A stretch of DNA of 63,574 nt, counting the filler, from Acidimicrobiia bacterium (lineage in GTDB: Bacteria; Actinomycetota; Acidimicrobiia; Spongiisociales; SHLN01), in NCBI GenBank assembly GCA_041619515.1. It is 6 parts of 6 records of this genome, joined end to end, with 100 filler letters (N's around TTAATTAATTAA, not from the genome) between each part and the next. Parts side by side here need not be neighbours in the genome. Positions count along the whole stretch, not along the records: positions 22,725 to 33,778 come from JBFKDW010000090.1; 5 more parts are not named here. One strand, 5' to 3'. Position numbers and translations under genes: made by a program. Positions 22,725 to 33,778 of the stretch are shown here, in pieces. Positions within the stretch are counted from its first letter, which is position 1. Every line of letters starts with the position of its first letter. Under the pieces are notes generated by a model, which saw only the letters and a program-made list of their open reading frames with translations, searched no databases and was not told where the DNA came from.

Positions 22725-23621
22725 ATGCAGCTGCCGTTGTTTCGCCGCTTCGACGTCGATCCGGTCGAGTTCTGGCGCGAGGTCGACGGGCTTCCCGACT
22801 TCTACCGGGCCCGCGGGGCCGGCCTGATCGGCCCGGACACGCTCTATCTGCACCACATCTTGACCTATGTGCGGTCCGGGCGGTTCGAAGGGCTCAACAA
22901 CCGCATGCTGCGGGAGCTGGGAGCCGAAATCCAGTTCTACGCCGGTCTCCCCGATTTCTTCGACCAGATCCGCAAGCGCCTCGAGGCCTCATCGGACTTC
23001 GCCGAGCACGGGGTCGAGGTCGAGCACTACATCGTGTCGAGCGGGCTGCGGCAGATGATCCTCGGCAGTGCCATCGCTCCCTACGTCGAGCAGATCTGGG
23101 CCTGTGAGTTCGCCGAAGAGAGTGCCCAGCCGGGGTACCTGGAAGATCGCACGCAGAAACCCCTTTTCGACGAGACTCGCACCCTGTCGCACGTCATCTA
23201 CAGCCTCGACAACACCACCAAGACCAGGGCGGTGTTCGAAATCAACAAGGGAACGAACAAGAACCCCAACGTCGACGTGAACGCCAAGGTGGCGCACGAA
23301 GACCGGCGGGTCCCCTTCCAGAACATGATCTACGTCGCCGACGGTCCCAGCGATGTGCCCGTCTTCTCGGTGGTCAAGGCCAACGGCGGCAAGACGCTGG
23401 CGGTGTACAAGCCGGAGTCGGAGGCCGAGTTCGAACAAGTGAACCGGCTGCAAGAACAGGGCCGGGTCGATTCCTTCGGCGAGGCCAACTACGAGAAGGG
23501 CTCCCAGACGTTCATGTGGATCACCCATGCGGTCGACAGCATCGCCCGGCGCATCGTCAACGACCGCCAGACTGCGCTTCATTCCCGCCTCGGTAAGCCA
23601 CCCGGCCACATCGACGGGTGA
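22725..23621 (+). CDS. HAD-superfamily hydrolase, 5'-truncated
   Basis: HYIVSSG, KTRAVFEINKG and YVADGPSDVP motifs; motif I (DxD) is lost at the contig start. Confidence 0.78.
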   Translation: MQLPLFRRFDVDPVEFWREVDGLPDFYRARGAGLIGPDTLYLHHILTYVRSGRFEGLNNRMLRELGAEIQFYAGLPDFFDQIRKRLEASSDFAEHGVEVEHYIVSSGLRQMILGSAIAPYVEQIWACEFAEESAQPGYLEDRTQKPLFDETRTLSHVIYSLDNTTKTRAVFEINKGTNKNPNVDVNAKVAHEDRRVPFQNMIYVADGPSDVPVFSVVKANGGKTLAVYKPESEAEFEQVNRLQEQGRVDSFGEANYEKGSQTFMWITHAVDSIARRIVNDRQTALHSRLGKPPGHIDG

Positions 23622-23658
23622 GCCCGAACACCACAGGCTGTTCGGGTAGCGTTCGGGT

Positions 23659-24021
23659 ATGGCGGTCAACGCTCGTCTGCAGGGTGATCACATCGTCGTC
23701 GAGCTGACGGGGCTCGACCGGGTGCTGTGCCTCAAGGGACGGGTGCGCGTTCCGCTGGAGGCCGTCACCTCCGTCGAGGCCATCGACCGCGAGTCGATCG
23801 AACGGCTTCCCGGCCGCTGGTTGCGTCTCCCCGGCACCTATGTGCCCAGTCTCGTCCATCATGGGTCCTACGGGTGGGGGGCGAATCGGGATTTCTGGGC
23901 CGTGTACCGGCAGGAGCGGGTTCTGGTCGTCAGGCTGAAGAACTGGGCCTACCGCAGGCTGGTGCTCGGTGTCCCCGACCCTGATCGGGTGGCGTCGGAG
24001 TTGGCGCAGTTCGTTCGGTAG
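23659..24021 (+). CDS. Conserved hypothetical protein (possible PH-like fold)
   Basis: Coherent 120-aa ORF abutting the next gene; RLPGT..P..G..DFW pattern. Confidence 0.65.
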   Translation: MAVNARLQGDHIVVELTGLDRVLCLKGRVRVPLEAVTSVEAIDRESIERLPGRWLRLPGTYVPSLVHHGSYGWGANRDFWAVYRQERVLVVRLKNWAYRRLVLGVPDPDRVASELAQFVR

Positions 24022-25311
24022 GTGACCGCCACTTCCTACCCCCGGCCGATAGTCATCGTGGGCCTGATGGGGTCCGGCAAGACGACGATCGGCCGCGCCC
24101 TCGCTCACCGGATCGGATACCGATTCGTCGACAACGACGCCGGCATCGAAGCCGAATACGATGCGACGGTCGGTGAGCTTGCCGAGCGCCTCGGCGTCGC
24201 CGAGCTGCACCGCATCGAGGCTGCCCAGTTGGACAACGCCCTCACCGCCTACGGATCCGAAGAGGTTGTGATCGCGGCCGCCGCCAGTGTCGCCGATGAT
24301 GCTGCCAGCCGGGCGCGGTTGTCGACGCACACCGTTGTCTGGCTTCGAGCCGACCCGGCCTATCTGGCAGGGCGGCTGCTCCAACCCGACCACCGTCCCA
24401 ATCTCGGCCTGGATCGCGGGCCGGTGCTGGCGGCCCAGGCCGACCTCCGGCACGGTGACTACCAGGCGATCTCCACCCTGGTGGTGGAGGTGGAGGGACG
24501 CTCGGTGCACGACATCGTCGAGGAGATCTGCCGGGGCCTCGCTCCGCTTCCCCGTCTCTACACCGACCTGGCCGGCTGGTTCCACCTCCTGACCCCCCCG
24601 TCCGAGTACGCCGAAGAGGCAGCCTTCTACTTCGGGGCCCTCCAGGAGGCGGCGACCCGTCCCATCGAGACCGTCCTCGAGCTCGGGAGTGGTGGCGGCA
24701 ACAACGCCTCCCACATGAAGCATCGGGCGGCCCTGACGCTCGTCGATCTCTCACCCCAGATGCTGGAGGTGAGCAGATCGATCAATCCTGAATGTGAGCA
24801 CCTGGTTGGGGACATGCGCACCGTTCGTCTCGATCGCCGTTTCGACGCCGTGTTCGTCCACGATGCAGTCGACTATCTGCTGACCGTCCACGACCTGGCG
24901 AGCGCCATCGAAACTGCCGTCGTGCATTGCCGGCCGGGCGGTGCGGTGCTGTTCGCCCCCGATGATGTGGCCGAGACCTTCCGGCCCACGACAATCACCG
25001 GCGGTCACCGTGACGAGACGAGAGCGCTCCGCTACGAGGAGCGCAGCTGGGAACCCGAGCCGGGGGAAACCAGCTATCTCACACGAATGACCTACTGGCT
25101 GGAAGAAGCGGGCGAGGCAGTGCGCGTGGTGGAGGACATGCACCGGTGCGGCCTGTTCCCCCGCGCCACCTGGCTCGCCCTGTTGGCCGACGCCGGCCTG
25201 GCCGCCGCCATCATTCCCTCCGAGCACAGCGAGCAGGACCATGTGATCGACGTGTTCGTGGGGACACCGGAGGCCGAAGCTAGGGTCGACCGAGCCCAGG
25301 AGGTGCCATGA
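24022..25311 (+). CDS. Shikimate-kinase-like P-loop kinase fused to a class I SAM methyltransferase
   Basis: N-terminal GLMGSGKTT..FVDND; C-terminal VLELGSGGG, DLSPQML, GDMR and FDAV in one reading frame. Confidence 0.8.
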   Translation: MTATSYPRPIVIVGLMGSGKTTIGRALAHRIGYRFVDNDAGIEAEYDATVGELAERLGVAELHRIEAAQLDNALTAYGSEEVVIAAAASVADDAASRARLSTHTVVWLRADPAYLAGRLLQPDHRPNLGLDRGPVLAAQADLRHGDYQAISTLVVEVEGRSVHDIVEEICRGLAPLPRLYTDLAGWFHLLTPPSEYAEEAAFYFGALQEAATRPIETVLELGSGGGNNASHMKHRAALTLVDLSPQMLEVSRSINPECEHLVGDMRTVRLDRRFDAVFVHDAVDYLLTVHDLASAIETAVVHCRPGGAVLFAPDDVAETFRPTTITGGHRDETRALRYEERSWEPEPGETSYLTRMTYWLEEAGEAVRVVEDMHRCGLFPRATWLALLADAGLAAAIIPSEHSEQDHVIDVFVGTPEAEARVDRAQEVP

Positions 25312-25976
25312 GCGACCCAAGCTTCATTCCGTATCGCCCGCCCCGCATCCCGGTCGAGGAGGTAGTGGAGCGAGCGGAACGGTTCCATGAGCTGATGGAG
25401 GGGCGTCGCAGCGTCCGCATGTTCAGCCCGGAGCCGGTTCCCCGGGAAGCCATCGAGCGGGCGATTGCGACGGCATCCACCGCGCCGTCCGGGGCGCACC
25501 GCCAGCCCTGGACGTTCGTGCTCATCGGTGATCCCGACATCAAGCGACAGATCCGCCGGGCCGCCGAAGCAGAGGAGCACACCAACTACGAGGGAGGACG
25601 GCTCCCCGATGACTGGCTGGAAGCCCTGCGACCCCTCGGAACCGATTGGCACAAGGAGTTTCTCGAGACGGTGCCCTGGATCGTGGTGCTGTTCGAGCAA
25701 CGCTACGGGGTGGACGCCGACGGTGAGCGGTTGAAGCACTTCTACGTCAAGGAGAGCGTCGGCATCGCCTGTGGCCTGTTCATCGCCGCCATCCATCAGA
25801 TGGGGCTCGCCACCCTCACCCACACGCCGAGCCCGATGGCGTTTCTGAGCAGGCTGCTACAGCGTCCAGAGAACGAGCGGCCGTTTGCGATGCTGCCGAT
25901 CGGCTATCCGGCACCTGACTGCACCGTTCCCGACATCGTCCGCAAGTCCCTCGCCGACGTGGTCGTCAGGTTCTGA
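25308..25976 (+). CDS. Nitroreductase family, iodotyrosine deiodinase-like
   Basis: RRSVRMF, APSGAHRQPW, EE..NY..W..L..L.T.W.K.FL, YVKESVGIA and THTP motifs. Confidence 0.85.
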   Translation: MSDPSFIPYRPPRIPVEEVVERAERFHELMEGRRSVRMFSPEPVPREAIERAIATASTAPSGAHRQPWTFVLIGDPDIKRQIRRAAEAEEHTNYEGGRLPDDWLEALRPLGTDWHKEFLETVPWIVVLFEQRYGVDADGERLKHFYVKESVGIACGLFIAAIHQMGLATLTHTPSPMAFLSRLLQRPENERPFAMLPIGYPAPDCTVPDIVRKSLADVVVRF

Positions 25977-25985
25977 CCTTTCGGC

Positions 25986-26507
25986 TCACAGGGCGTCCAC
26001 CGGCTCGAAGACGAGATCGATGGCAACCGACACCACCGGGTCCATCTTGAGCACCAGCAGCGTCGGGGGTTCGAGGCCCCACCATTGAACGTCCATCTGT
26101 CCGCTTCCCGCCAGGTGAAGCCCGTCGGCGGTATCGTCGATCAGGCTGATGTCGCCTTCCAATTCGACGACCTTCCCCAGAAAGGTGACTTCGCCCTTGA
26201 TGGTGGCCCGCGGCCCTGCGTAGGCCACCACCCCGGTCAGGTCTCCCCGAATCGTTGGATGCAGCCTGGCGTTGAGGCGCCGCCGCGTCTCTCGATCCAC
26301 CAGCGGATTGCCGGAACGGAACTCGATCACGGCGATCTCGACTTCGCCCCGCACGGGGCGGCCCGGAACGAACTCCCCGTTCTCAACCGCCGCTTCCAGC
26401 CACCCGGCGGGTGTGACGTTGACCGTGATCGGGTACAGCGAGGTCTCGCCGACAATGGTGACGGTCGATGGCTCGGGGGAGATGCGGTACCGGGCGATGT
26501 CGGACAT
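25986..26507 (-). CDS. YceI-like lipid/polyisoprenoid-binding protein
   Basis: FRSGNPLVDRE..L...HPTI and WGLEPPTLLVL..V.V; leaderless TAGCGT box. Confidence 0.7.
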   Translation of the reverse strand: MSDIARYRISPEPSTVTIVGETSLYPITVNVTPAGWLEAAVENGEFVPGRPVRGEVEIAVIEFRSGNPLVDRETRRRLNARLHPTIRGDLTGVVAYAGPRATIKGEVTFLGKVVELEGDISLIDDTADGLHLAGSGQMDVQWWGLEPPTLLVLKMDPVVSVAIDLVFEPVDAL

Positions 26508-26595
26508 CTCCCGACGCTAACGCGTCGGCATGCAGTCCATATCTTTGCGAGCCCGGCGGCGGCCGGTGCCGGCGCGGTTCACGCGCCTTCGGAGC

Positions 26596-26997
26596 TCACG
26601 TCGCCTGGCTGATCTCGAACAGATGGCCATCGGGATCACGAAAGAAGCAGCGGATCTCCTCTCCCCAGTCATACGGCGGGGTCAGGAACTCCGCTCCCCG
26701 GTCCCGCAGCGTGCCATAGGCGGCCCGGCAGTCGTCTACCCGGATCGTGAAGGCATGGTCGACGGAGGTGGTCGATCCGAGCGCCTGCAATGAAATGCCC
26801 GGCTTGTCGGGCGTCGGCTCCCCTCCGGTGACGAGCAGCAGCCAGGTGCCGGTGAAGCTGAACACGGCCGAGGTGCCGCCGTACTCTCGATACAGCTCGG
26901 CCCCGAGCACGTCGCGGTACCAGGCCACCGAGCGGTCGAGATCGCTGATCACCACGATGTGGGTGAGGGCCATGTCGGGGGTGGGAAACGCGGTCAC
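26596..26997 (-). CDS. VOC/glyoxalase family protein
   Basis: DLDRSVAWYRDVLG and WGEEIRCFFRDPDGHLFE motifs. Confidence 0.88.
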   Translation of the reverse strand: MTAFPTPDMALTHIVVISDLDRSVAWYRDVLGAELYREYGGTSAVFSFTGTWLLLVTGGEPTPDKPGISLQALGSTTSVDHAFTIRVDDCRAAYGTLRDRGAEFLTPPYDWGEEIRCFFRDPDGHLFEISQAT

Positions 26998-27770
26998 GAG
27001 ACGTAGGACCGTACCCGTTCGAGCTGATCGATGCCGAATCGAGCATCACTCGTGCGGCTGGGATCGTCCAACTGGGAGCGGAACGATGCCAGCGCCTCAC
27101 CGTAGAGATCGCCCCCGGACGGCTCACCGTCGGCGATGCGGGCCAGGCCGAGGTAGCCGGCACCGATGAGGACCGGGAACGGGGCCTGCGATGTGATCGC
27201 GTCGTGCTCTCCGGCTTGTCGGGCTGCGCGGCGAGCATGTTCCAGGGACCGTTCCATGCAATCGGAGGCGGCGGCGGTGTTTCCGAGCCGGAGCTGGTGG
27301 TACCCGAATGCCCACCACCCGAGGTGCTTGGACGAATCCGGCTTGGCGAGCTCCTCCCGCAGTCCCACCGACTGCTCGGCGATCTCCATCCCGCGCTGGA
27401 AGTGCCTTCGCTGGCGAGGCTCGTCGTCTCCCGGCCAGCAATCCGCGATGTCGGCGGCGAAGTTGAAGGTGAGCTCGGCAAGCACCGCGAGGTAATCGTT
27501 GCGCTCGTCGACCGGGACCTTTTCGGCCCGTTCGCTCAGCCAGGCGCAGCCGGCATCCACCACCTCCATGTAACCGTCGAGGTTCTTGCCCTCCCACTCA
27601 TCCAGGACGAGGCCGTGGCGGGCATTTCGGAAGAGCGCGGAGCGTTCGGCGTCCGACGGGTAGGCGAGGATGGCAGCCACCATGGCGCCCGGGCCGCCTG
27701 TTTCCAGTGCGCTGCGCAATGCAGGCCACTGTGACGAGAAGAAGTCCCGCTCGTTCCCGATCGAATCCAT
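26994..27770 (-). CDS. Hypothetical alpha-helical (TPR-like) protein
   Basis: 258-aa ORF with a leaderless TAGCCT box; GTGA overlap with the VOC gene. Confidence 0.65.
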   Translation of the reverse strand: MDSIGNERDFFSSQWPALRSALETGGPGAMVAAILAYPSDAERSALFRNARHGLVLDEWEGKNLDGYMEVVDAGCAWLSERAEKVPVDERNDYLAVLAELTFNFAADIADCWPGDDEPRQRRHFQRGMEIAEQSVGLREELAKPDSSKHLGWWAFGYHQLRLGNTAAASDCMERSLEHARRAARQAGEHDAITSQAPFPVLIGAGYLGLARIADGEPSGGDLYGEALASFRSQLDDPSRTSDARFGIDQLERVRSYVS

Positions 27771-27868
27771 GGCGGGAGGCTAGTTGTTGCTCCGTCCCGA
27801 TCGCGGTCCGGGTGACATCCCCCGCCGGGGTGCTCGTTCTTCGGTTCGCCGGCGGCCAGACTCTGAGC

Positions 27869-29005
27869 ATGGCCCCCGATCCGATTGTCGAAACCGAGCG
27901 CTGGTTCCTGCGGCGCGGTGTCCCCCACCTCATCGCCGATTACAACGCCGCAGAGGATGTGTTCACCCGGGTGCTTCCGCTCCTCAGCTTCATCTTCCTG
28001 TTCAGCATGGTCGGCGCCCTCAGCGACGAGTTCTCGACTGCCGAGAACGTGGGCGTCGCCGTCGGCGGCTTCATCCTGCTCATCGCCATATGGGCGGCGG
28101 TCAATTGGGCACGAGGCGTCCGGCCACTCCTCGCCCGGCCGCAGCGGGTCGGGCGGATCGAGCTGGCGGTGTTCGTGCTCGGGCCGGCGCTGGTGCCGAT
28201 CGTGTTCGGCGGACAGTTCGCCACGGCGGGCTTGACGATTCTCTCGAACCTCGCCATCTTGGTGGTCGTATACCTGGGCGCCAGCTACGGCGTGGTCGCC
28301 ATACTCGCCTGGGGGGTGCGGCGCCTGCTGCGTGACATCGGGGGAGCGGCTCGCATCGGCGCCCGCGCCCTCCCGCTGCTGCTGCTGTTCAACGCGTTCC
28401 TGTTCATCAACGCCGAGATGTGGCAAGTGACATCCCGCATCGACCTCACCTTGCTGCTGGCGGGACTGGGCCTGTTCGTGACCCTCGGTGGCGCGTTCCT
28501 GCTTTCGCGACTGCCGCGGGAGATTCAGGCGCTGGCGAGCTTCGGGTCGCCGGACGAGGTCGAGCGTCTGTGCCGTGGAACCCCCATGGCGGGTGCCGCC
28601 GGGTACGGTGACCTGCCGGACTACCCGCTGACGCGTCGCCAGCGCGGCAATGTCGGCCTGGTGCTCCTGTTCACGCAGGGAGTGCTGGTGCTGGCCGTCA
28701 GCGTGTTCATCGGCCTCTTCTTTGTGATCTTCGGTTTGTTGATCATGAACCCCGAGACGCTGGTCGAGTGGACGGGGGCGCCGCTAACCGATCTGTACGA
28801 AGTGTCCTTCAGGGAAGATCGGATCGTGCTCAGTGAGGAGCTGTTGCGGGCAGCCGGGTTTCTGGCAGCGTTCTCCGGGCTGTATTTCACGGTGAACGCC
28901 GCCACCGAGCCCACCTACCGCGCAGAGTTCTTCGACGAGCTGCTCGAGGAGGTGCGCCAATCGATGGCAGTGCGGGAGGCCTACCTCAAGACGCTGGAGG
29001 GCTGA
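27869..29005 (+). CDS. Conserved integral membrane protein
   Basis: About 8 TM segments; ERWFLRRGVPH and FLFINAEMWQ patterns. Confidence 0.75.
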   Translation: MAPDPIVETERWFLRRGVPHLIADYNAAEDVFTRVLPLLSFIFLFSMVGALSDEFSTAENVGVAVGGFILLIAIWAAVNWARGVRPLLARPQRVGRIELAVFVLGPALVPIVFGGQFATAGLTILSNLAILVVVYLGASYGVVAILAWGVRRLLRDIGGAARIGARALPLLLLFNAFLFINAEMWQVTSRIDLTLLLAGLGLFVTLGGAFLLSRLPREIQALASFGSPDEVERLCRGTPMAGAAGYGDLPDYPLTRRQRGNVGLVLLFTQGVLVLAVSVFIGLFFVIFGLLIMNPETLVEWTGAPLTDLYEVSFREDRIVLSEELLRAAGFLAAFSGLYFTVNAATEPTYRAEFFDELLEEVRQSMAVREAYLKTLEG

Positions 29006-29007
29006 CG

Positions 29008-29040
29008 TGAAAGGGTCCCGCCTTGCGACGGGACCCTCTC
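29008..29040 (-). terminator. Intrinsic terminator-like hairpin (possibly bidirectional)
   Basis: AGGGTCCCG (29012-29020) pairs with CGGGACCCT (29029-29037); short T run on the minus strand. Confidence 0.7.
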
Positions 29041-29125
29041 CAATTCGATCTCCGAGCTGAGGAGGAGTCCAAGGAAGGGAGTCACTCCACGAATGGAGTT
29101 ATGGACCGTCGATGATCGAATCACT
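29008..29125 (-). ncRNA. Candidate structured small RNA (~115 nt) with C/U-rich anti-SD-like segments
   Basis: Nested helices, a UUCG hairpin, a 3' terminator and an upstream sigma28-like promoter; no plausible ORF. Confidence 0.55.
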
Positions 29126-29130
29126 GATAG

Positions 29131-29158
29131 ATTTCGGCGGATTACACGGCCGGCTTGA
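29131..29158 (-). promoter_or_regulatory. sigma28 (FliA/WhiG)-type promoter
   Basis: Minus strand TCAAG-N15-GCCGAAAT, compared with the consensus TAAA(G)-N15-GCCGATAA. Confidence 0.55.
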
Positions 29159-29186
29159 GGAACTTATCGGCCGGTAGGCTGCGGCA

Positions 29187-30062
29187 GTGTTCGACCGTTT
29201 GTGGCCCCCACTCGTGCTGGTGGCACTCGCCAGCTCCTGGGGAGTGATCCCCGTCATCGTCCGCGAGGTCGACCTCTCGAGCGGGCAGCTGGCGGCCAGC
29301 CGTATCTGGCTGTCGACCATGTTTCTGTTCGGCCTGCTTGCCCTGCGCGGCGATGTTCGACTCCCGGTGACGTCGCGGCGGGCGTTCGTCACGAGTGGCC
29401 TGTTGCTGCCGTTGCATTGGTTCACCTTCTTCCAGGCGATAGAGACCACGCGGGTGCTGGTGGCGCTGGTGCTGGTATTCGTGGCGGCTCCCGCCATGTC
29501 GATTGCCGCTACCCGGGTGCTGGGCGAGCCGCTGTCGGTCCTAACGGGGCTGGCCGTCGTAGGCGGATTCATCGGGGCCGCCATCGCCGTCGATCCCTCC
29601 AACGGAGCCACCACCGAAGGAGTCCTCTGGTCGCTTGCCTCCGGCGGCCTGCTGGCGGTGATGCTGCTGGCGGTGAAGCCCGGCGCCGCCGACCTGGGCG
29701 GGCTCAAGTTCGGAGCATGGCAGGGAGTGATCGCCTCGGCGGTCACATTGCCGTGGGCGGCCTCCTCTGTTCCCGACGTGGGCGGCGACCTGCCCCTGGT
29801 GCTGTTTCTCGGCCTCGGGCTCACCGGGATCTCCGGTCTCATCTACCTGGGCACGATGCATCGGGTGCCGGTATCGATGCTGAGCTCCACCATGTACGTC
29901 GAGCCGATGGCCGCAGTGGTGGCTGCCTGGTTGTTGCTCGATGAGGACCCGGGTGCCCGCGGTTGGGTGGGCATCGTGCTGGTGATCGGCTTCGGCGTAG
30001 TGGTCGGCTGGACCAACGAGCGGGCCGCCCGGGTGGCGGCAAAGGTGGGCGCCGCCGTGTGA
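29187..30062 (+). CDS. DMT/EamA family transporter
   Basis: 10 TM segments in two EamA repeats; YVEPMAA motif; leaderless TAGGCT box. Confidence 0.85.
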   Translation: MFDRLWPPLVLVALASSWGVIPVIVREVDLSSGQLAASRIWLSTMFLFGLLALRGDVRLPVTSRRAFVTSGLLLPLHWFTFFQAIETTRVLVALVLVFVAAPAMSIAATRVLGEPLSVLTGLAVVGGFIGAAIAVDPSNGATTEGVLWSLASGGLLAVMLLAVKPGAADLGGLKFGAWQGVIASAVTLPWAASSVPDVGGDLPLVLFLGLGLTGISGLIYLGTMHRVPVSMLSSTMYVEPMAAVVAAWLLLDEDPGARGWVGIVLVIGFGVVVGWTNERAARVAAKVGAAV

Positions 30063-30090
30063 CCCGAGGTACGGCGAGTACCGTGGGCGG

Positions 30091-30543
30091 GTGGTGACAG
30101 CATCGGAGCAGGACACGGTCAGGCTGGTGGCGATCGACGCCGCCAACTGGCGGGCGGCGTGTGCCCTGGACGTCGAAGCGGACCAAGCAGGGTTCGTCGC
30201 ACCCGTTTCCCATTATCTCGCCCTGTGCACCTATGGAGGGGAATGGCACCCGCTCGCCATCATGGCCGGTGAGGTCCTGGTCGGCTTCGTGATGTGGGCC
30301 GTGGACGACGCCGACGACAGCTTCTGGATTGGTGGCCTTCTCGTCGATGCCCGGCACCAACGGCGCGGCTACGGGCGGGCTGCCGTGGAGCTGCTGATCG
30401 CGATGGCAGCCGAGCGCAAATGCTCGGGAGTCGCTCTCAGCTATCAGCCGGCCAACCCGGCCCGGCACCTGTACGGTGCCCTCGGCTTCGTCGAGACCGG
30501 CGAGGTCGAAGACGACGAGGTGGTCGCCCGCCGCCCGGCCTGA
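30091..30543 (+). CDS. GNAT acetyltransferase (polyamine acetyltransferase-like)
   Basis: VDARHQRRGYGRAA and N..ARHLY..LGF motifs. Confidence 0.87.
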   Translation: MVTASEQDTVRLVAIDAANWRAACALDVEADQAGFVAPVSHYLALCTYGGEWHPLAIMAGEVLVGFVMWAVDDADDSFWIGGLLVDARHQRRGYGRAAVELLIAMAAERKCSGVALSYQPANPARHLYGALGFVETGEVEDDEVVARRPA

Positions 30544-30680
30544 GCCGCCGATTCACCGCCCGGCCGGCCCTGATGATCTGAAAGCGGCCTCCGAGAACGG
30601 GACAGGCTCGGGGTTCCCTGGGGTCGATCCCGGGATCTTCCCCGATGGTGGGCGTGGCCGTTCTGGTCGATGCTGGTGGC

Positions 30681-31997
30681 ATGAAAACACTCACCACCGC
30701 CACACAGCTGGCACGGGCCACACCCGCCACCCGCAATCGCTACATCGACCTGCTGCGAGTCCTCTCGATCCTCGTCGTCGTCGTCGGCCATTGGCTGATG
30801 GCAGTTGTCGTCGTCAAGGCCGACGGCTCCGTCGACGGAGGCAACCTCCTCGGAATGGTTCCGTGGTTGCAGTACCTCACCTGGGGCCTCCAGGTGATGC
30901 CGATCTTCTTCATCGTGGGCGGGTTCGCCAACGCCGCCTCGTGGATGTCGGCCCGGGACAGGGGCGTGCCGTACGGGGCGTGGCTGCGCGGCCGCATGGC
31001 ACGGCTGCTGCGCCCGACGCTGGTGTTCGCCGCCGTATGGACGGTGCTGACGCTGGTCTTCGCACACCTGGTTGATTTGAGTCCCGAAACGCTGAAGGCC
31101 GGGACCATGCTCGTCGCCGTCCCCGTCTGGTTCCTCGCCGTCTATCTGCTCGTGATCCCGCTGGTTCCGCTCATGCTGGGACTGCACGACCGGCTCGGAC
31201 TGGTGCTGCCGGTCTCGCTGGTGATCTCGGCCGCCTTCGTCGATGTTCTCGTGCGCGACCTTGGCCTGGTCGGTGTTGGGTACGTCAACTACCTGCTGGT
31301 GTGGCTGGCCGTCCACCAGCTCGGCTTCTTCTGGCGGGACGGCCGGGTCGCCGGCCGGGGACGCGCCGTAGCCCTGGCGGTGGCGGGCCTGGCGGCATTG
31401 GCAATGCTGTCCGCGTCCGGGCTGTATTCACGAAGCCTGCTCGGCGTGCCGGGGGAGGAGTTCGGGAACACCCAGCCGCCCACCGTCATGCTGATCGCCG
31501 TTGCGCTGTTTCAATTCGGTGCCATCCTGCTGCTCGAATCCCGAGCCCGGCGGTGGCTGGAGCGAGAGCGGGTGTGGGCGGCGGTGATCACCGCCAACGG
31601 CCTCGCCATGACCGTCTACCTGTGGCACCTGCCGGCGATGGCGTTCGGAGTGCTGCTCGCCCAGCAGATTGGGGCCGGTCTGGGGGTGGAGCCGCTCACA
31701 GGGACGTGGTGGGCCATCCGTCCGCTGTGGGTACTCGCCCTGGGGGTGATCACCGTCCCGCTCGTTGCGCTGTTTCACGGTGTCGAGCGTGCCGGGACAT
31801 CCGGGCCGATCGGGGCCGGACGGCCGATCGCCGCCGTCGCCGGTGCGATCGCAGCCGCCGTCGGTCTCGGCCTGCTCGCCCTCGGCGGGTTCTATCGCCA
31901 GGACGGCCTCCTCGACCTGGCCGTGCTGCCGCTCGGCCTGTTGGCCGCCGGGGCGCTGCTGCTCGGCCAGCTCAAAGGTTTGATGCTGCGGGGGTGA
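30681..31997 (+). CDS. Acyltransferase family 3 membrane protein
   Basis: RNRYIDLLR, GHW, MPIFFIVGG, R..RL and MTVYLWH motifs. Confidence 0.85.
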   Translation: MKTLTTATQLARATPATRNRYIDLLRVLSILVVVVGHWLMAVVVVKADGSVDGGNLLGMVPWLQYLTWGLQVMPIFFIVGGFANAASWMSARDRGVPYGAWLRGRMARLLRPTLVFAAVWTVLTLVFAHLVDLSPETLKAGTMLVAVPVWFLAVYLLVIPLVPLMLGLHDRLGLVLPVSLVISAAFVDVLVRDLGLVGVGYVNYLLVWLAVHQLGFFWRDGRVAGRGRAVALAVAGLAALAMLSASGLYSRSLLGVPGEEFGNTQPPTVMLIAVALFQFGAILLLESRARRWLERERVWAAVITANGLAMTVYLWHLPAMAFGVLLAQQIGAGLGVEPLTGTWWAIRPLWVLALGVITVPLVALFHGVERAGTSGPIGAGRPIAAVAGAIAAAVGLGLLALGGFYRQDGLLDLAVLPLGLLAAGALLLGQLKGLMLRG

Positions 31998-32012
31998 GAC
32001 CGGGCCGGCAGG

Positions 32013-32333
32013 TCAGTTCGTCAGCTCGGGAGGATCGGCGATCTCACGGCGCAGCCGATCGACCCCGTCGTCCTTGTCGAGGATGCGCTCGGCGGTGGCC
32101 AGCCGATCCCTTTCCGTGCTGAGCACGGCTGCTTCGGCTTCGATCTCGCGCATGCGCAGCTTGTGGCGCTCCTGCATGAGGAACCACCCACCGCCGACGG
32201 CGACCAGGGCGAGAATGGATGCCCCCACCAGAATCGACAGCGCAACCGGAGCGTCGGCCAGAACTGCGACGATCGGGATGAGGAGCGCCAACCCCGCGGG
32301 AATCAGCCAATACGGCCGCTCTTTGTCTTCCAT
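32013..32333 (-). CDS. Small 2-TM hypothetical protein with coiled tail
   Basis: Two hydrophobic helices; leaderless TATTCT box. Confidence 0.6.
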   Translation of the reverse strand: MEDKERPYWLIPAGLALLIPIVAVLADAPVALSILVGASILALVAVGGGWFLMQERHKLRMREIEAEAAVLSTERDRLATAERILDKDDGVDRLRREIADPPELTN

Positions 32334-32405
32334 GGGCTGAGAATAGCCGGTGGTTCGCGAGCCGATCCGGCGCGGCTGCGCAGTGTTTCCGTGTTGTTCC
32401 CGTCT

Positions 32406-32467
32406 GGTTGCCCGGCAACCGCCTAGGTGTGTTGTCCCGCAGGGTTCCCGGAATCCGAAGGGTTCCC
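32406..32467 (-). repeat. Palindromic repeat element (GGGAACCCTTCGG.. x2, CCTAGG, GTTGC-N3-GCAAC) at the dcd 3' end
   Basis: Same motif architecture as the repeats at 57397-57498. Confidence 0.65.
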
Positions 32468-33025
32468 AAAGTCCTCGTGGATGCGGCTGGGGGTCGGGCC
32501 GCGCTGGCCTTGGTACTTGGAGCCGGCCCCGGCGCTCCCATAGGGATGGTCGGCCGGGGTGGAGAGCTCGTAGAAGGAGATCTGGCCGATCTTCATGCCC
32601 GGGTAGATGGCGATCGGCAGGGTCGCCACGTTCGACAGCTCGAGGGTGATGTGTCCCGAGAAGCCCGGGTCGATGAACCCGGCCGTGGAGTGGATGAGGA
32701 GGCCGAGGCGTCCAAGGCTCGACTTGCCTTCGAGGCGGGCAACGATGTCGTCCGACAGGCTCACGACTTCCAGGGTCGACCCCAGCACGAACTCCCCGGG
32801 ATGAAGCATGAACGGGTTGTCCTCGTCCGCTTCGATCTGGGTTGTGAGGTCGGGCTGGGGGGTGCGCGGGTCGATGTACGGGTACCGATGATTCTCAAAC
32901 GTGCGGAAGTACGAGTCGACCCGCACGTCGATGCTGGATGGCTGGATGTTTGCCTCCACGAGCGGTTCCACCTGGATGCGCTTCTCGGCGAGCGCCTCTT
33001 TCATGGTGCGATCGGAAAAGATCAC
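32423..33025 (-). CDS. dcd: dCTP deaminase
   Basis: [29 protein letters not shown] and SKYQGQ motifs. Confidence 0.95.
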
Positions 33026-33045
33026 GACTACTCCGCTGTGGCCCG

Positions 33046-33116
33046 AGCGGGTGAGGGGAATCGGACCCCCGTCCCGAGCTTGGGAAGCTCGTGTTCTACC
33101 ATTGAACTACACCCGC
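33046..33116 (-). tRNA. tRNA-Gly(CCC), CCA not encoded
   Basis: Cloverleaf: GCGGGTG/CACCCGC acceptor stem, D arm GTTC-AATGGTA-GAAC, anticodon arm CGAGC-TTCCCAA-GCTCG, U discriminator; T-loop reads TCCGATT. Confidence 0.92.
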
Positions 33117-33169
33117 GAAGCCGACAGTGTACCGCTTCGCAGTGTCCCGTCCTCGCAGGCGGCTCCGAC

Positions 33170-33778
33170 CTACCACCGGGTGCGGCCGCGGAACTCACGG
33201 CGCGCTTCCCGCAGGTTCTTGCGCAGCCTCAGCAGCTGGCGCTCCAGGGGATCGTTGCCGTGCATGACGTCGGGGCTGGAGACCCCGTCGAGAGCCCGGC
33301 GGAGAGCGTCCCGCACCCGGCTGAGCCACACCTTCACACCCGTGACGATGGCGCCGCTTCCAAGCAGGAACCCACCAACGGCAGCCGGAATCGCTATCTC
33401 GGGAGCACCGACCGCAGTACCGAAGGCGGCACCGGCCGCAGCCGCCGCTCCGAGCCCGGCGACTGCTGCCGCTCCGACGGCTTTGAGCGTGTGGGTCTCG
33501 GCTTCGAGGGCGAGAGCCTGTTCCTCGTCGCGGATTGCCTGGATGCGATGGGTCACTTTGCGGGAGTTCCGCAGCACCCGGGAGCCCCGTCCCATCCGCA
33601 GGCCCATGCGGATTCTGGTGAGCACGTGGGAGTCCTTCTCCCACACGCCGCCGTCGGCGAGCTTGCGGCGCAGGCGCAGGCCCTCCTGGCGGGACATCCA
33701 CTCACCGAGGCGGGATTCAACGGTCTCCCGATCCGAGTAGACGATGGCGCTCTCGGTGATGGAGACGGGCGCGAAGAG
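33170..33778 (-). CDS. Hypothetical membrane-associated protein, 5'-truncated
   Basis: Frame is open to the contig end; C-terminal hydrophobic hairpin. Confidence 0.6.
   Translation of the reverse strand, partial: LFAPVSITESAIVYSDRETVESRLGEWMSRQEGLRLRRKLADGGVWEKDSHVLTRIRMGLRMGRGSRVLRNSRKVTHRIQAIRDEEQALALEAETHTLKAVGAAAVAGLGAAAAAGAAFGTAVGAPEIAIPAAVGGFLLGSGAIVTGVKVWLSRVRDALRRALDGVSSPDVMHGNDPLERQLLRLRKNLREARREFRGRTRW

Follow-up and report, generated by a model that had tools for sequence, protein, structure and literature searches.

A candidate WhiG-type small RNA family in an order of Acidimicrobiia, with the mRNA of a SigB-like sigma factor as its predicted target

We describe here a small RNA (sRNA) family that spans one order of the Acidimicrobiia. 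We are confident that it represents a real WhiG-type sRNA gene, and we consider it probable that the RNA acts by base-pairing; taken as a whole, the reading that we favor on balance is one in which a WhiG-driven sRNA blocks ribosome-binding sites and the mRNA of a SigB-like sigma factor is its true target. The sRNA family, its order-wide range, its structural rebuild, and the specific predicted target are new; the mechanism class, that of the C/U-rich anti-Shine-Dalgarno sRNAs, is already well known. The original prediction had proposed a trans-acting translational regulator in a sigma28 regulon. Of that proposal, the conserved sRNA gene and the WhiG-type promoter stand as observations, and we infer transcription, WhiG dependence, pairing in vivo, and repression with its outcome. 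A literature search covering open-access PubMed Central and bioRxiv found no paper describing this sRNA family, and no member was found in a cultured host within the searches made.

The window is the whole stretch of DNA that was analyzed, 63,574 nucleotides made of six joined contigs. The element sits on one of these, JBFKDW010000090.1 (G000:C90, window positions 22725-33778), and sequence beyond 33778 is unrelated. It is present as a single copy in the 3.1-Mb, 66% GC host genome (G000, 95.65% complete), with no paralogue elsewhere in that genome. The features of the element and its surroundings are as follows.

29154..29158, minus strand: -35 element of the WhiG/sigma28-type promoter (TCAAG; TAAAG in the family's most distant genus)
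29131..29138, minus strand: -10 element (GCCGAAAT; GCCGAAA. pattern)
29006..29125, minus strand: predicted sRNA of about 115-120 nt, with +1 placed by inference at 29124-29125
29110-29122 with 29042-29054, minus strand: closing helix P1, with covariation in 10 sequences and in families f2/f10
29102-29106 with 29067-29071, minus strand: inner helix P2, enclosing hairpin P3
29084-29099, minus strand: hairpin P3, inside P2
29072..29081, minus strand: 5' C/U-rich tract CUCCCUUCCU, unpaired in the predicted fold; invariant in 13 of 14 family sequences, the other lacking the first C
29056..29066, minus strand: 3' C/U-rich tract UCCUCCUCAGC, likewise unpaired; identical in all 14 family sequences; predicted to be the seed that pairs with the SigB-like sigma mRNA
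29009..29040, minus strand: terminator-like hairpin of 14 bp with a short UUUC tail
27707..29005, plus strand: convergent neighbor outside the element, a 432-aa hydrophobic protein of no Pfam family
29187..30062, plus strand: divergent neighbor, an EamA transporter (PF00892)
32423..33025, minus strand: dcd (dCTP deaminase, PF22769), which marks the ancestral locus and lies 3.3 kb upstream in the same orientation as the RNA
33046-33116, minus strand: tRNA immediately upstream of dcd (Rfam match)

The promoter, both helices, the hairpin, the two tracts, and the terminator drawn in the original prediction were all recovered at the same positions, with a promoter spacer of 15 nt, and the minimum free energy and centroid structures concur on that fold. 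The minus strand from 29124 to 29006 folds at -54.9 kcal/mol (z = -4.27; 0 of 200 shuffles), and the plus-strand fold is weaker (z = -1.66). The body without its terminator folds no better than shuffled sequence (z = -1.58; 14/200), so support for the body is comparative. The U tract of the terminator is only UUUC, under the U-run threshold of the scanner, which called 0 terminators; the hairpin at 29009-29040 probably serves in addition as the terminator of the convergent gene, whose end is at 29005. The original prediction could assign the RNA to no named family, and this holds in Rfam: at gathering cut-offs only a tRNA is found in the window, and by E-value the region and 10 homologous loci give terminator-driven or chance matches only. 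The same tRNA lies ~1.4 kb from the RNA in one homologous locus (L011). Elsewhere on the contig, a shikimate-kinase-like domain and a methyltransferase are fused in one frame (window 24022-25311, plus strand).

Homologues that are conserved and that covary, as the original prediction required, were found both in the window's family (f1) and across the order. By BLAST, the element is present in 13 of 13 same-family genomes. In the 14 family sequences the T, A, A, and G of the -35 element and seven columns of the -10 element are invariant, compared with only 5-11 of 14 for spacer columns, and a C/U core of 25-26 nt is fixed in all of them. In an alignment of 10 of the 14 sequences, those from the two closer genera, 96.4% of cells are paired and double-sided changes occur in 7 of 40 pairs, three in the closing helix and four in the terminator (itself 100% paired); these figures exceed all 500 shuffles and every slid control, although the sequences are related and 0/500 is therefore not a probability. 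The inner helices P2 and P3 show no double-sided change in this alignment (100% and 94% of cells paired). G-U cells number 43 versus 3 A-C cells, which favors the minus strand as the transcribed one and upholds the strand chosen in the original prediction. Two of the arguments first offered for that choice fall, since 13 of the 14 homologues lack the UUCG loop and the UUUC tail is too short for the scanner; the conclusion stands.

No reading frame is common to the 14 family sequences on either strand, and a 21-codon plus-strand frame in G000, considered as a possible peptide, is absent from the other 13 and was rejected. Scanning one genome per species for the exact 19-nt core returned 14 records: 10 from Acidimicrobiia/Acidimicrobiaceae, 1 from Actinomycetes, 2 from Gammaproteobacteria, and 1 from Pseudarthrobacter (by title). 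The last was discarded as a 30-nt partial match (E 0.002) that is at chance level with a wider model; the titles of the two gammaproteobacterial records (L040, L041) may be wrong.

How far does the family extend within the order, which is probably UBA5794? A wider, sequence-only model built from 44 members, for which a strong match is full-length with E <= 2e-5, finds one copy each in 61 of 151 order genomes, and 36 of these 61 lie outside the training set. By family, strong matches occur in 3/3 genomes of f1, 11/33 of f2, 1/1 of f3, 8/32 of f4, 2/2 of f5, 3/3 of f6, 12/13 of f7, 19/25 of f10, 1/24 of f11, and 1/13 of f12, and members in f8 and f9 were recognized by inspection; the f5 counts, and one dnaB locus considered below, rest on genomes flagged as unpublished (G017, G028). 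A promoter-plus-core pattern matches 58 of 401 order genomes versus 8 for its reversed control, with a few evident chance matches among the 58. Outside the order, the same pattern matches 8 of 278 genomes of the class versus 4 control matches, and two of the 8 were put to the wider model, where both failed; in a phylum sample of 146 genomes, the wider model gave 2 weak partial matches, none convincing. The RNA family is thus spread across one whole order, with no convincing member outside it among the genomes searched. One genome (G230) holds two near-identical copies of the RNA (C105, C109), and another (G006) has, besides its first copy, a partial one truncated where a contig stops (L022).

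Synteny was read from Pfam matches on 94 of 206 flanking frames at 45 of 56 homologous loci. Among these 45 loci, dnaB is convergent in 15 and dcd lies directly upstream in 9, with both in 3, and an EamA gene occupies the same position in 5; downstream neighbors vary between genomes. At the dnaB loci of pattern-negative genomes, the RNA is present in 2 of 30. The recurrent dcd and dnaB neighbors argue that the members are orthologues that go back to an ancestral dcd-RNA-dnaB locus, which later took up insertions. The RNA gene is stand-alone: the promoter-body-terminator unit persists while its neighbors change. Side observations at these loci include a dnaB gene with a LAGLIDADG intein (G018; L090) and, in several f7 genomes (L121-L125), a shortened RNA of ~90 nt between a divergent LysR gene and a same-strand surE.

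Across families, the shared layout is a closing helix around two or three C/U-rich segments, followed by a strong hairpin, and in 22 sequences from f2 and f10 double changes occur in 7 of 8 predicted pairs of the closing helix. In most families the modeled fold contains a GGAG/CUCC hairpin with a CCC(C)UU loop, such that the CUCC anti-Shine-Dalgarno core is predicted to be paired and only CCCUU exposed; the window's family appears re-paired inside, with both tracts still open in the model. Because other families pair GGAG with a downstream CUCC instead, P2 and P3 constitute a family-specific fold. The CCCUU of the 5' tract is the most widely conserved element and is predicted to be unpaired in most families. 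That the pyrimidine tracts are kept exposed while the scaffold around them is rebuilt points to the tracts as the likely functional parts.

The promoter T(A/C)AA-N16-GCCGA occurs at the right distance in 14 of 14 family sequences, and its -35 element is degenerate in most f2 members inspected. A strict form of the pattern has 28 sites in G000 versus 16 for the reversed pattern, so a single promoter site is in itself little proof; nonetheless, 15 of the 28 sites, compared with 0 of the 16 reversed ones, are intergenic and just upstream of a start. Sites precede genes for a PilB-type ATPase, a pilin-like protein, a Tad ATPase, and a Flp pilin, as well as GGDEF and HD-domain proteins, a WhiB, and a response regulator. 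Further WhiG-type promoters lie on C12, C42, C103, C3, and C123 before genes without a clear pilus role: a nucleotide-sugar dehydrogenase-like gene, genes that by their motifs would encode a DivIVA-like and a DHH-like protein, and genes of unassigned function.

The sigma28 gene that the original prediction called for is present in G000 as whiG, above the curated cut-off (TIGR02479, 270 bits; NF004935, 349.9 versus a cut-off of 343) and adjoining xerC-like and dprA-like genes. It is accompanied by a twin-motif rsiG (PF22802, 61.9 bits, plus a second, weaker motif), and no flagellin gene was found in this genome. With WhiG paired with RsiG and no flagellin gene, the predicted sigma28 regulon holds in its WhiG form, as a regulon of pili and c-di-GMP enzymes, and not of flagella. 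In the available text of the published work, the -10 element matches the WhiG2 consensus (PMC12871210), the Rubrobacter WhiG regulon comprises pilus and c-di-GMP genes as does the G000 promoter set (PMC8325347), similar WhiG targets occur more widely in Actinomycetota (PMC12871210), and release of WhiG by RsiG upon a drop in c-di-GMP is an established switch (PMC8325347, PMC12871210).

Across the order, whiG was found in 169 of 201 genomes (a tally that takes in G195, flagged as unpublished) and in only 4 of 29 genomes of f11, where the sole strong RNA match falls in a whiG-positive genome (8% contamination). A whiG match is present in 59 of the 61 RNA-positive genomes; the two exceptions, G120 and G194, are also without the sigma gene, making assembly gaps likely. 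A strong RNA match is missing from many genomes that do have whiG (f2, 22/33; f4, 24/32; f12, 12/13). In total, this pattern of co-occurrence makes the RNA look WhiG-dependent and dispensable, with the proviso that kin are not independent.

Which mRNA might the tracts pair with? Targets were ranked over ~2,800 genes from a home-made gene model, with leaders scored by duplex plus opening energy. The gene of most interest (G000:C6), reached through a motif listing and not through this ranking, encodes a group-2, SigB-like sigma factor; RpoD and SigB are its best-scoring NCBIfam models, although none reaches its cut-off. All 14 family genomes have YUGAGGAGGA within positions -20 to -7 relative to the sigma start, and in the same 14 the 3' tract is an exact 10-nt complement of the ribosome-binding site of this gene. 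The conserved stretch at the sigma leader stops where complementarity stops, and in the distant genus an 11-nt complement is found at the sigma site though the rest of the leader differs. The predicted duplex of RNA and sigma leader has an energy of -17 to -23 kcal/mol in the 13 cases computed, with modest opening costs, and the sigma gene is the only gene with the 10-mer in all 10 genomes scanned.

A comparison of orthologue pairs between G000 and 0.77 Mb of G010, about a quarter of that genome, places the sigma gene first of 345 pairs for the 3' tract, against a background in which 8 of 313 pairs share at least 10 nt upstream. When the flanks of the anti-Shine-Dalgarno core were randomized, 5 of 1024 and 4 of 800 seeds gave a shared match of 10 nt (~0.5%), a figure that by our own estimate becomes ~2-4% given that the gene was picked post hoc, that its region was included by choice, that a quarter of the genome was covered, and that there are two seeds. 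Six of the ten matched bases are ordinary Shine-Dalgarno sequence. Since the seed is constant, compensatory changes are absent, and the sole substitution (C to U) sits across from a G. Cognate pairs from 19 genomes outside the window's family reach only -1 to -10 kcal/mol and do not outdo non-cognate pairs, and order-wide co-evolution of the RNA and the sigma leader was not seen; the identical 3' tract occurs in f2 and f9, where the full sigma site is missing.

The sigma gene itself is 85-97% identical across the order (L028 = G000:C6:54300-54400, minus strand; L296-L330, L377-L390), and its conserved upstream element, a G-run, TTC.CAA, and then TG.CATA.TG, is probably a sigma-A-type promoter plus operator. 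Besides the rpoD-like gene after dnaG, G000 has four group-2-like sigma paralogues; its sigma genes lie on C33, C6, C23, C4 (two), and C19, with 26 sigma region-2 matches in all.

Other candidate targets fared less well under comparison. The top single-genome target, a 91-aa coiled-coil gene (G000:C16), was rejected when its site proved to be missing in 29 of 29 orthologues, as was a lipoprotein gene (G000:C44) whose site is lost in 16 of 16 homologues. For the 5' tract, the top rank went to a CBS-domain gene next to that for the sigma factor, but this result is equaled by 191 of 500 shuffled seeds and the site is heterogeneous over 11 genomes; the gene was set aside as a weak lead. The same 10-mer as in the sigma leader occurs at the ribosome-binding site of ftsZ in two genomes of the distant genus (L346:6130-6270; G013:C53) and not in G000, and ftsZ was likewise rejected.

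Several observations made along the way concern these and other genes. The 91-aa coiled-coil-like protein (L233:5056-5331; G000:C16:19055-19330, minus strand) belongs to no Pfam family, is present in 29 of 34 order genomes, is missing from two f11 genomes that have no whiG, and has only unnamed Actinomycetota proteins as Atlas neighbors. Upstream of rpsF, G000 and G010 share 15 identical nucleotides (before G000:C116:3377-3685; L349), presumably the S6:S18 leader. A RecA-like protein of 709 aa (G000:C73:4166-6295) probably bears an intein.

Could the same WhiG-driven pairing sRNA instead be a broad, low-specificity blocker of strong ribosome-binding sites, notably those of lipoprotein and solute-binding mRNAs, for which the sigma match would be incidental or a late, local gain? 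Lipoproteins account for 3 of the 7 G000 genes with a 10-mer site versus 14 of 147 other AGGAGG genes, signal-peptide-like starts recur among the 10-mer genes of the genomes scanned, no specific target was found order-wide, and in the available text of PMC10746234 the candidate targets of NfeR1 are mostly ABC transporters. However, these numbers are small, such genes have high expression and strong sites in any case, and a broad blocker leaves unexplained both the 26 fixed core bases and a sigma-leader conservation that ends with complementarity. We regard this alternative as unlikely.

It is also conceivable that the C/U-rich single strands serve as a decoy, titrating an RNA-binding protein or sponging a GGAG-rich sRNA, with no mRNA pairing at all. 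Three pyrimidine-rich single-stranded segments are retained across the scaffold rebuilds between families, the exposed loop is only CCC(C)UU in most families, and three candidate mRNA targets failed on conservation, all of which a decoy would accommodate. Yet no candidate protein was found among the scanned neighbors, and the sigma complement in 14 of 14 genomes would have to be chance. Furthermore, repeated protein-binding sites usually vary less than these tracts, the length and sequence of which differ between families beyond what is usual for such sites. A decoy function thus seems quite improbable.

Is there a functional RNA at all? The locus might be a bidirectional terminator together with operator or promoter DNA, or the leader of a short peptide or a downstream gene, given that the hairpin is positioned to end the convergent gene, that the body fold is indistinguishable from shuffles when taken alone, and that surE comes next on the same strand in f7. 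Against this possibility, which we judge highly improbable, the whole unit travels intact amid changing neighbors, the closing helix covaries, G-U cells outnumber A-C cells as described above, and no frame is conserved. Finally, a plus-strand, GGA-rich RNA sequestering CsrA/RsmA, which the original prediction rightly disfavored, can be dismissed as having almost no chance of being correct: there are several GGA motifs on the plus strand and a weak RsmY match in one homologue (E 0.25, on the minus strand and mostly terminator), but no CsrA gene (PF02599) was found in the 95.65% complete genome, the promoter and the G-U bias are on the minus strand, and the plus fold is the weaker.

We therefore return to the favored reading, in which a WhiG-driven sRNA blocks ribosome-binding sites and the sigma mRNA is the true target. 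We posit that as c-di-GMP falls, RsiG would release WhiG, and that the freed WhiG would transcribe pilus genes and the candidate sRNA together. The open C/U-rich tracts would then pair with ribosome-binding sites and block ribosome loading, probably without a chaperone, as for 6C. In this way the sRNA would damp a competing sigma factor of the SigB-like type, and its reach would probably extend to further mRNAs with strong translation, such as those of lipoprotein genes. More tentatively, and here we would put the chances at somewhat less than even, the c-di-GMP-RsiG-WhiG switch directly outputs an order-wide sRNA that, in the window's family, shuts off translation of the SigB-like sigma factor.

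If this is true, it would be a second-messenger-gated, RNA-mediated hand-over from one sigma factor to another that commits unicellular actinobacteria to the piliated state. To our knowledge, few sRNA circuits are known in the actinobacterial phylum. Through the present one, the WhiG-RsiG-c-di-GMP switch would gain a direct arm at the post-transcriptional level, which this order of uncultured Acidimicrobiia has maintained at a single ancestral locus. The proposed circuit yields one sharp prediction, that of a 10-nt seed against a sigma-factor leader.

How does the candidate compare with known RNAs and switches? RNAs of the 6S/Ms1 type are long rods, at least about 160 nt in length, with a two-sided bubble at the center; the body here is ~83 nt with one-sided loops and has no Rfam match, and that identity was rejected. 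By analogy, the candidate would work like cuckoo/NfeR1 and 6C, yet it fails their defining features. With the cuckoo/alpha-r14/NfeR1/CcsR family (RF02344) it shares a length of ~120 nt, several anti-Shine-Dalgarno pyrimidine segments, a stand-alone gene, and a terminator, and NfeR1 is described in the available text as occluding ribosome-binding sites without Hfq (PMC4615179, PMC10746234). Among Rfam families, RF02344 also comes closest over the full length, with a score no better than chance (12.3 bits versus a cut-off of 58.8; E 5.4). In contrast to cuckoo, the loop motif CCUCCUCCC is absent from the 14 family sequences (the nearest, CUCCUCCUC, lies in an internal loop), one long closing helix encloses the tracts in place of 2-4 adjacent hairpins, and the setting is a WhiG-type promoter in Acidimicrobiia rather than the Alphaproteobacteria.

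The 6C/scr3558/B11 family (RF01066) is, like the candidate, actinobacterial with C-rich loops, and these are reported to pair with G-rich leaders without a chaperone (PMC6486639, available text). 6C represses dnaB, and the candidate gene is often convergent to dnaB, a likeness of position only. As far as the accessible parts of these papers go, 6C has two hairpins with at least 6 Cs each and lies near partitioning and pilus genes (PMC1950547), and scr3558 is not whiG-dependent (PMC2602773). In the candidate, by contrast, C-runs in the tracts of the window RNA reach at most 3, a single loop of 5-7 Cs, rather than two, is seen in some distant members, and the flanking genes include dcd, dnaB, and EamA; a search of G000 with the 6C model gives no match at E <= 1, and 0 of 5 genomes exceed its cut-off.

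Comparable in regulation is scr1906 of Streptomyces coelicolor, an sRNA whose expression needs whiG and the sole whiG-dependent sRNA that we found in print; according to its published description, it differs in being 61-63 nt long and in having no WhiG promoter found, its dependence being judged indirect (PMC2602773). The Escherichia coli RNAs UhpU, MotR, FliX, and FlgO likewise form a post-transcriptional arm of a sigma28 regulon, although in the portions of PMC10578931 available they are UTR-derived, Hfq-associated, and act on flagella, whereas the candidate is stand-alone and the sigma28 promoters of its host point to type IV and Tad pili. In the available text, the published searches for WhiG promoters were confined to at most 200 bp from start codons (PMC8325347, PMC12871210), and the terms sRNA, small RNA, and non-coding (noncoding) have 0 occurrences in the main texts of both papers. 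A close system in terms of circuitry is the one that these papers describe: the WhiG-RsiG-c-di-GMP switch of Rubrobacter and other Actinomycetota has the same sigma and anti-sigma factors, the same promoter consensus, and the same pilus and c-di-GMP targets as the genome in which the candidate sRNA is found.
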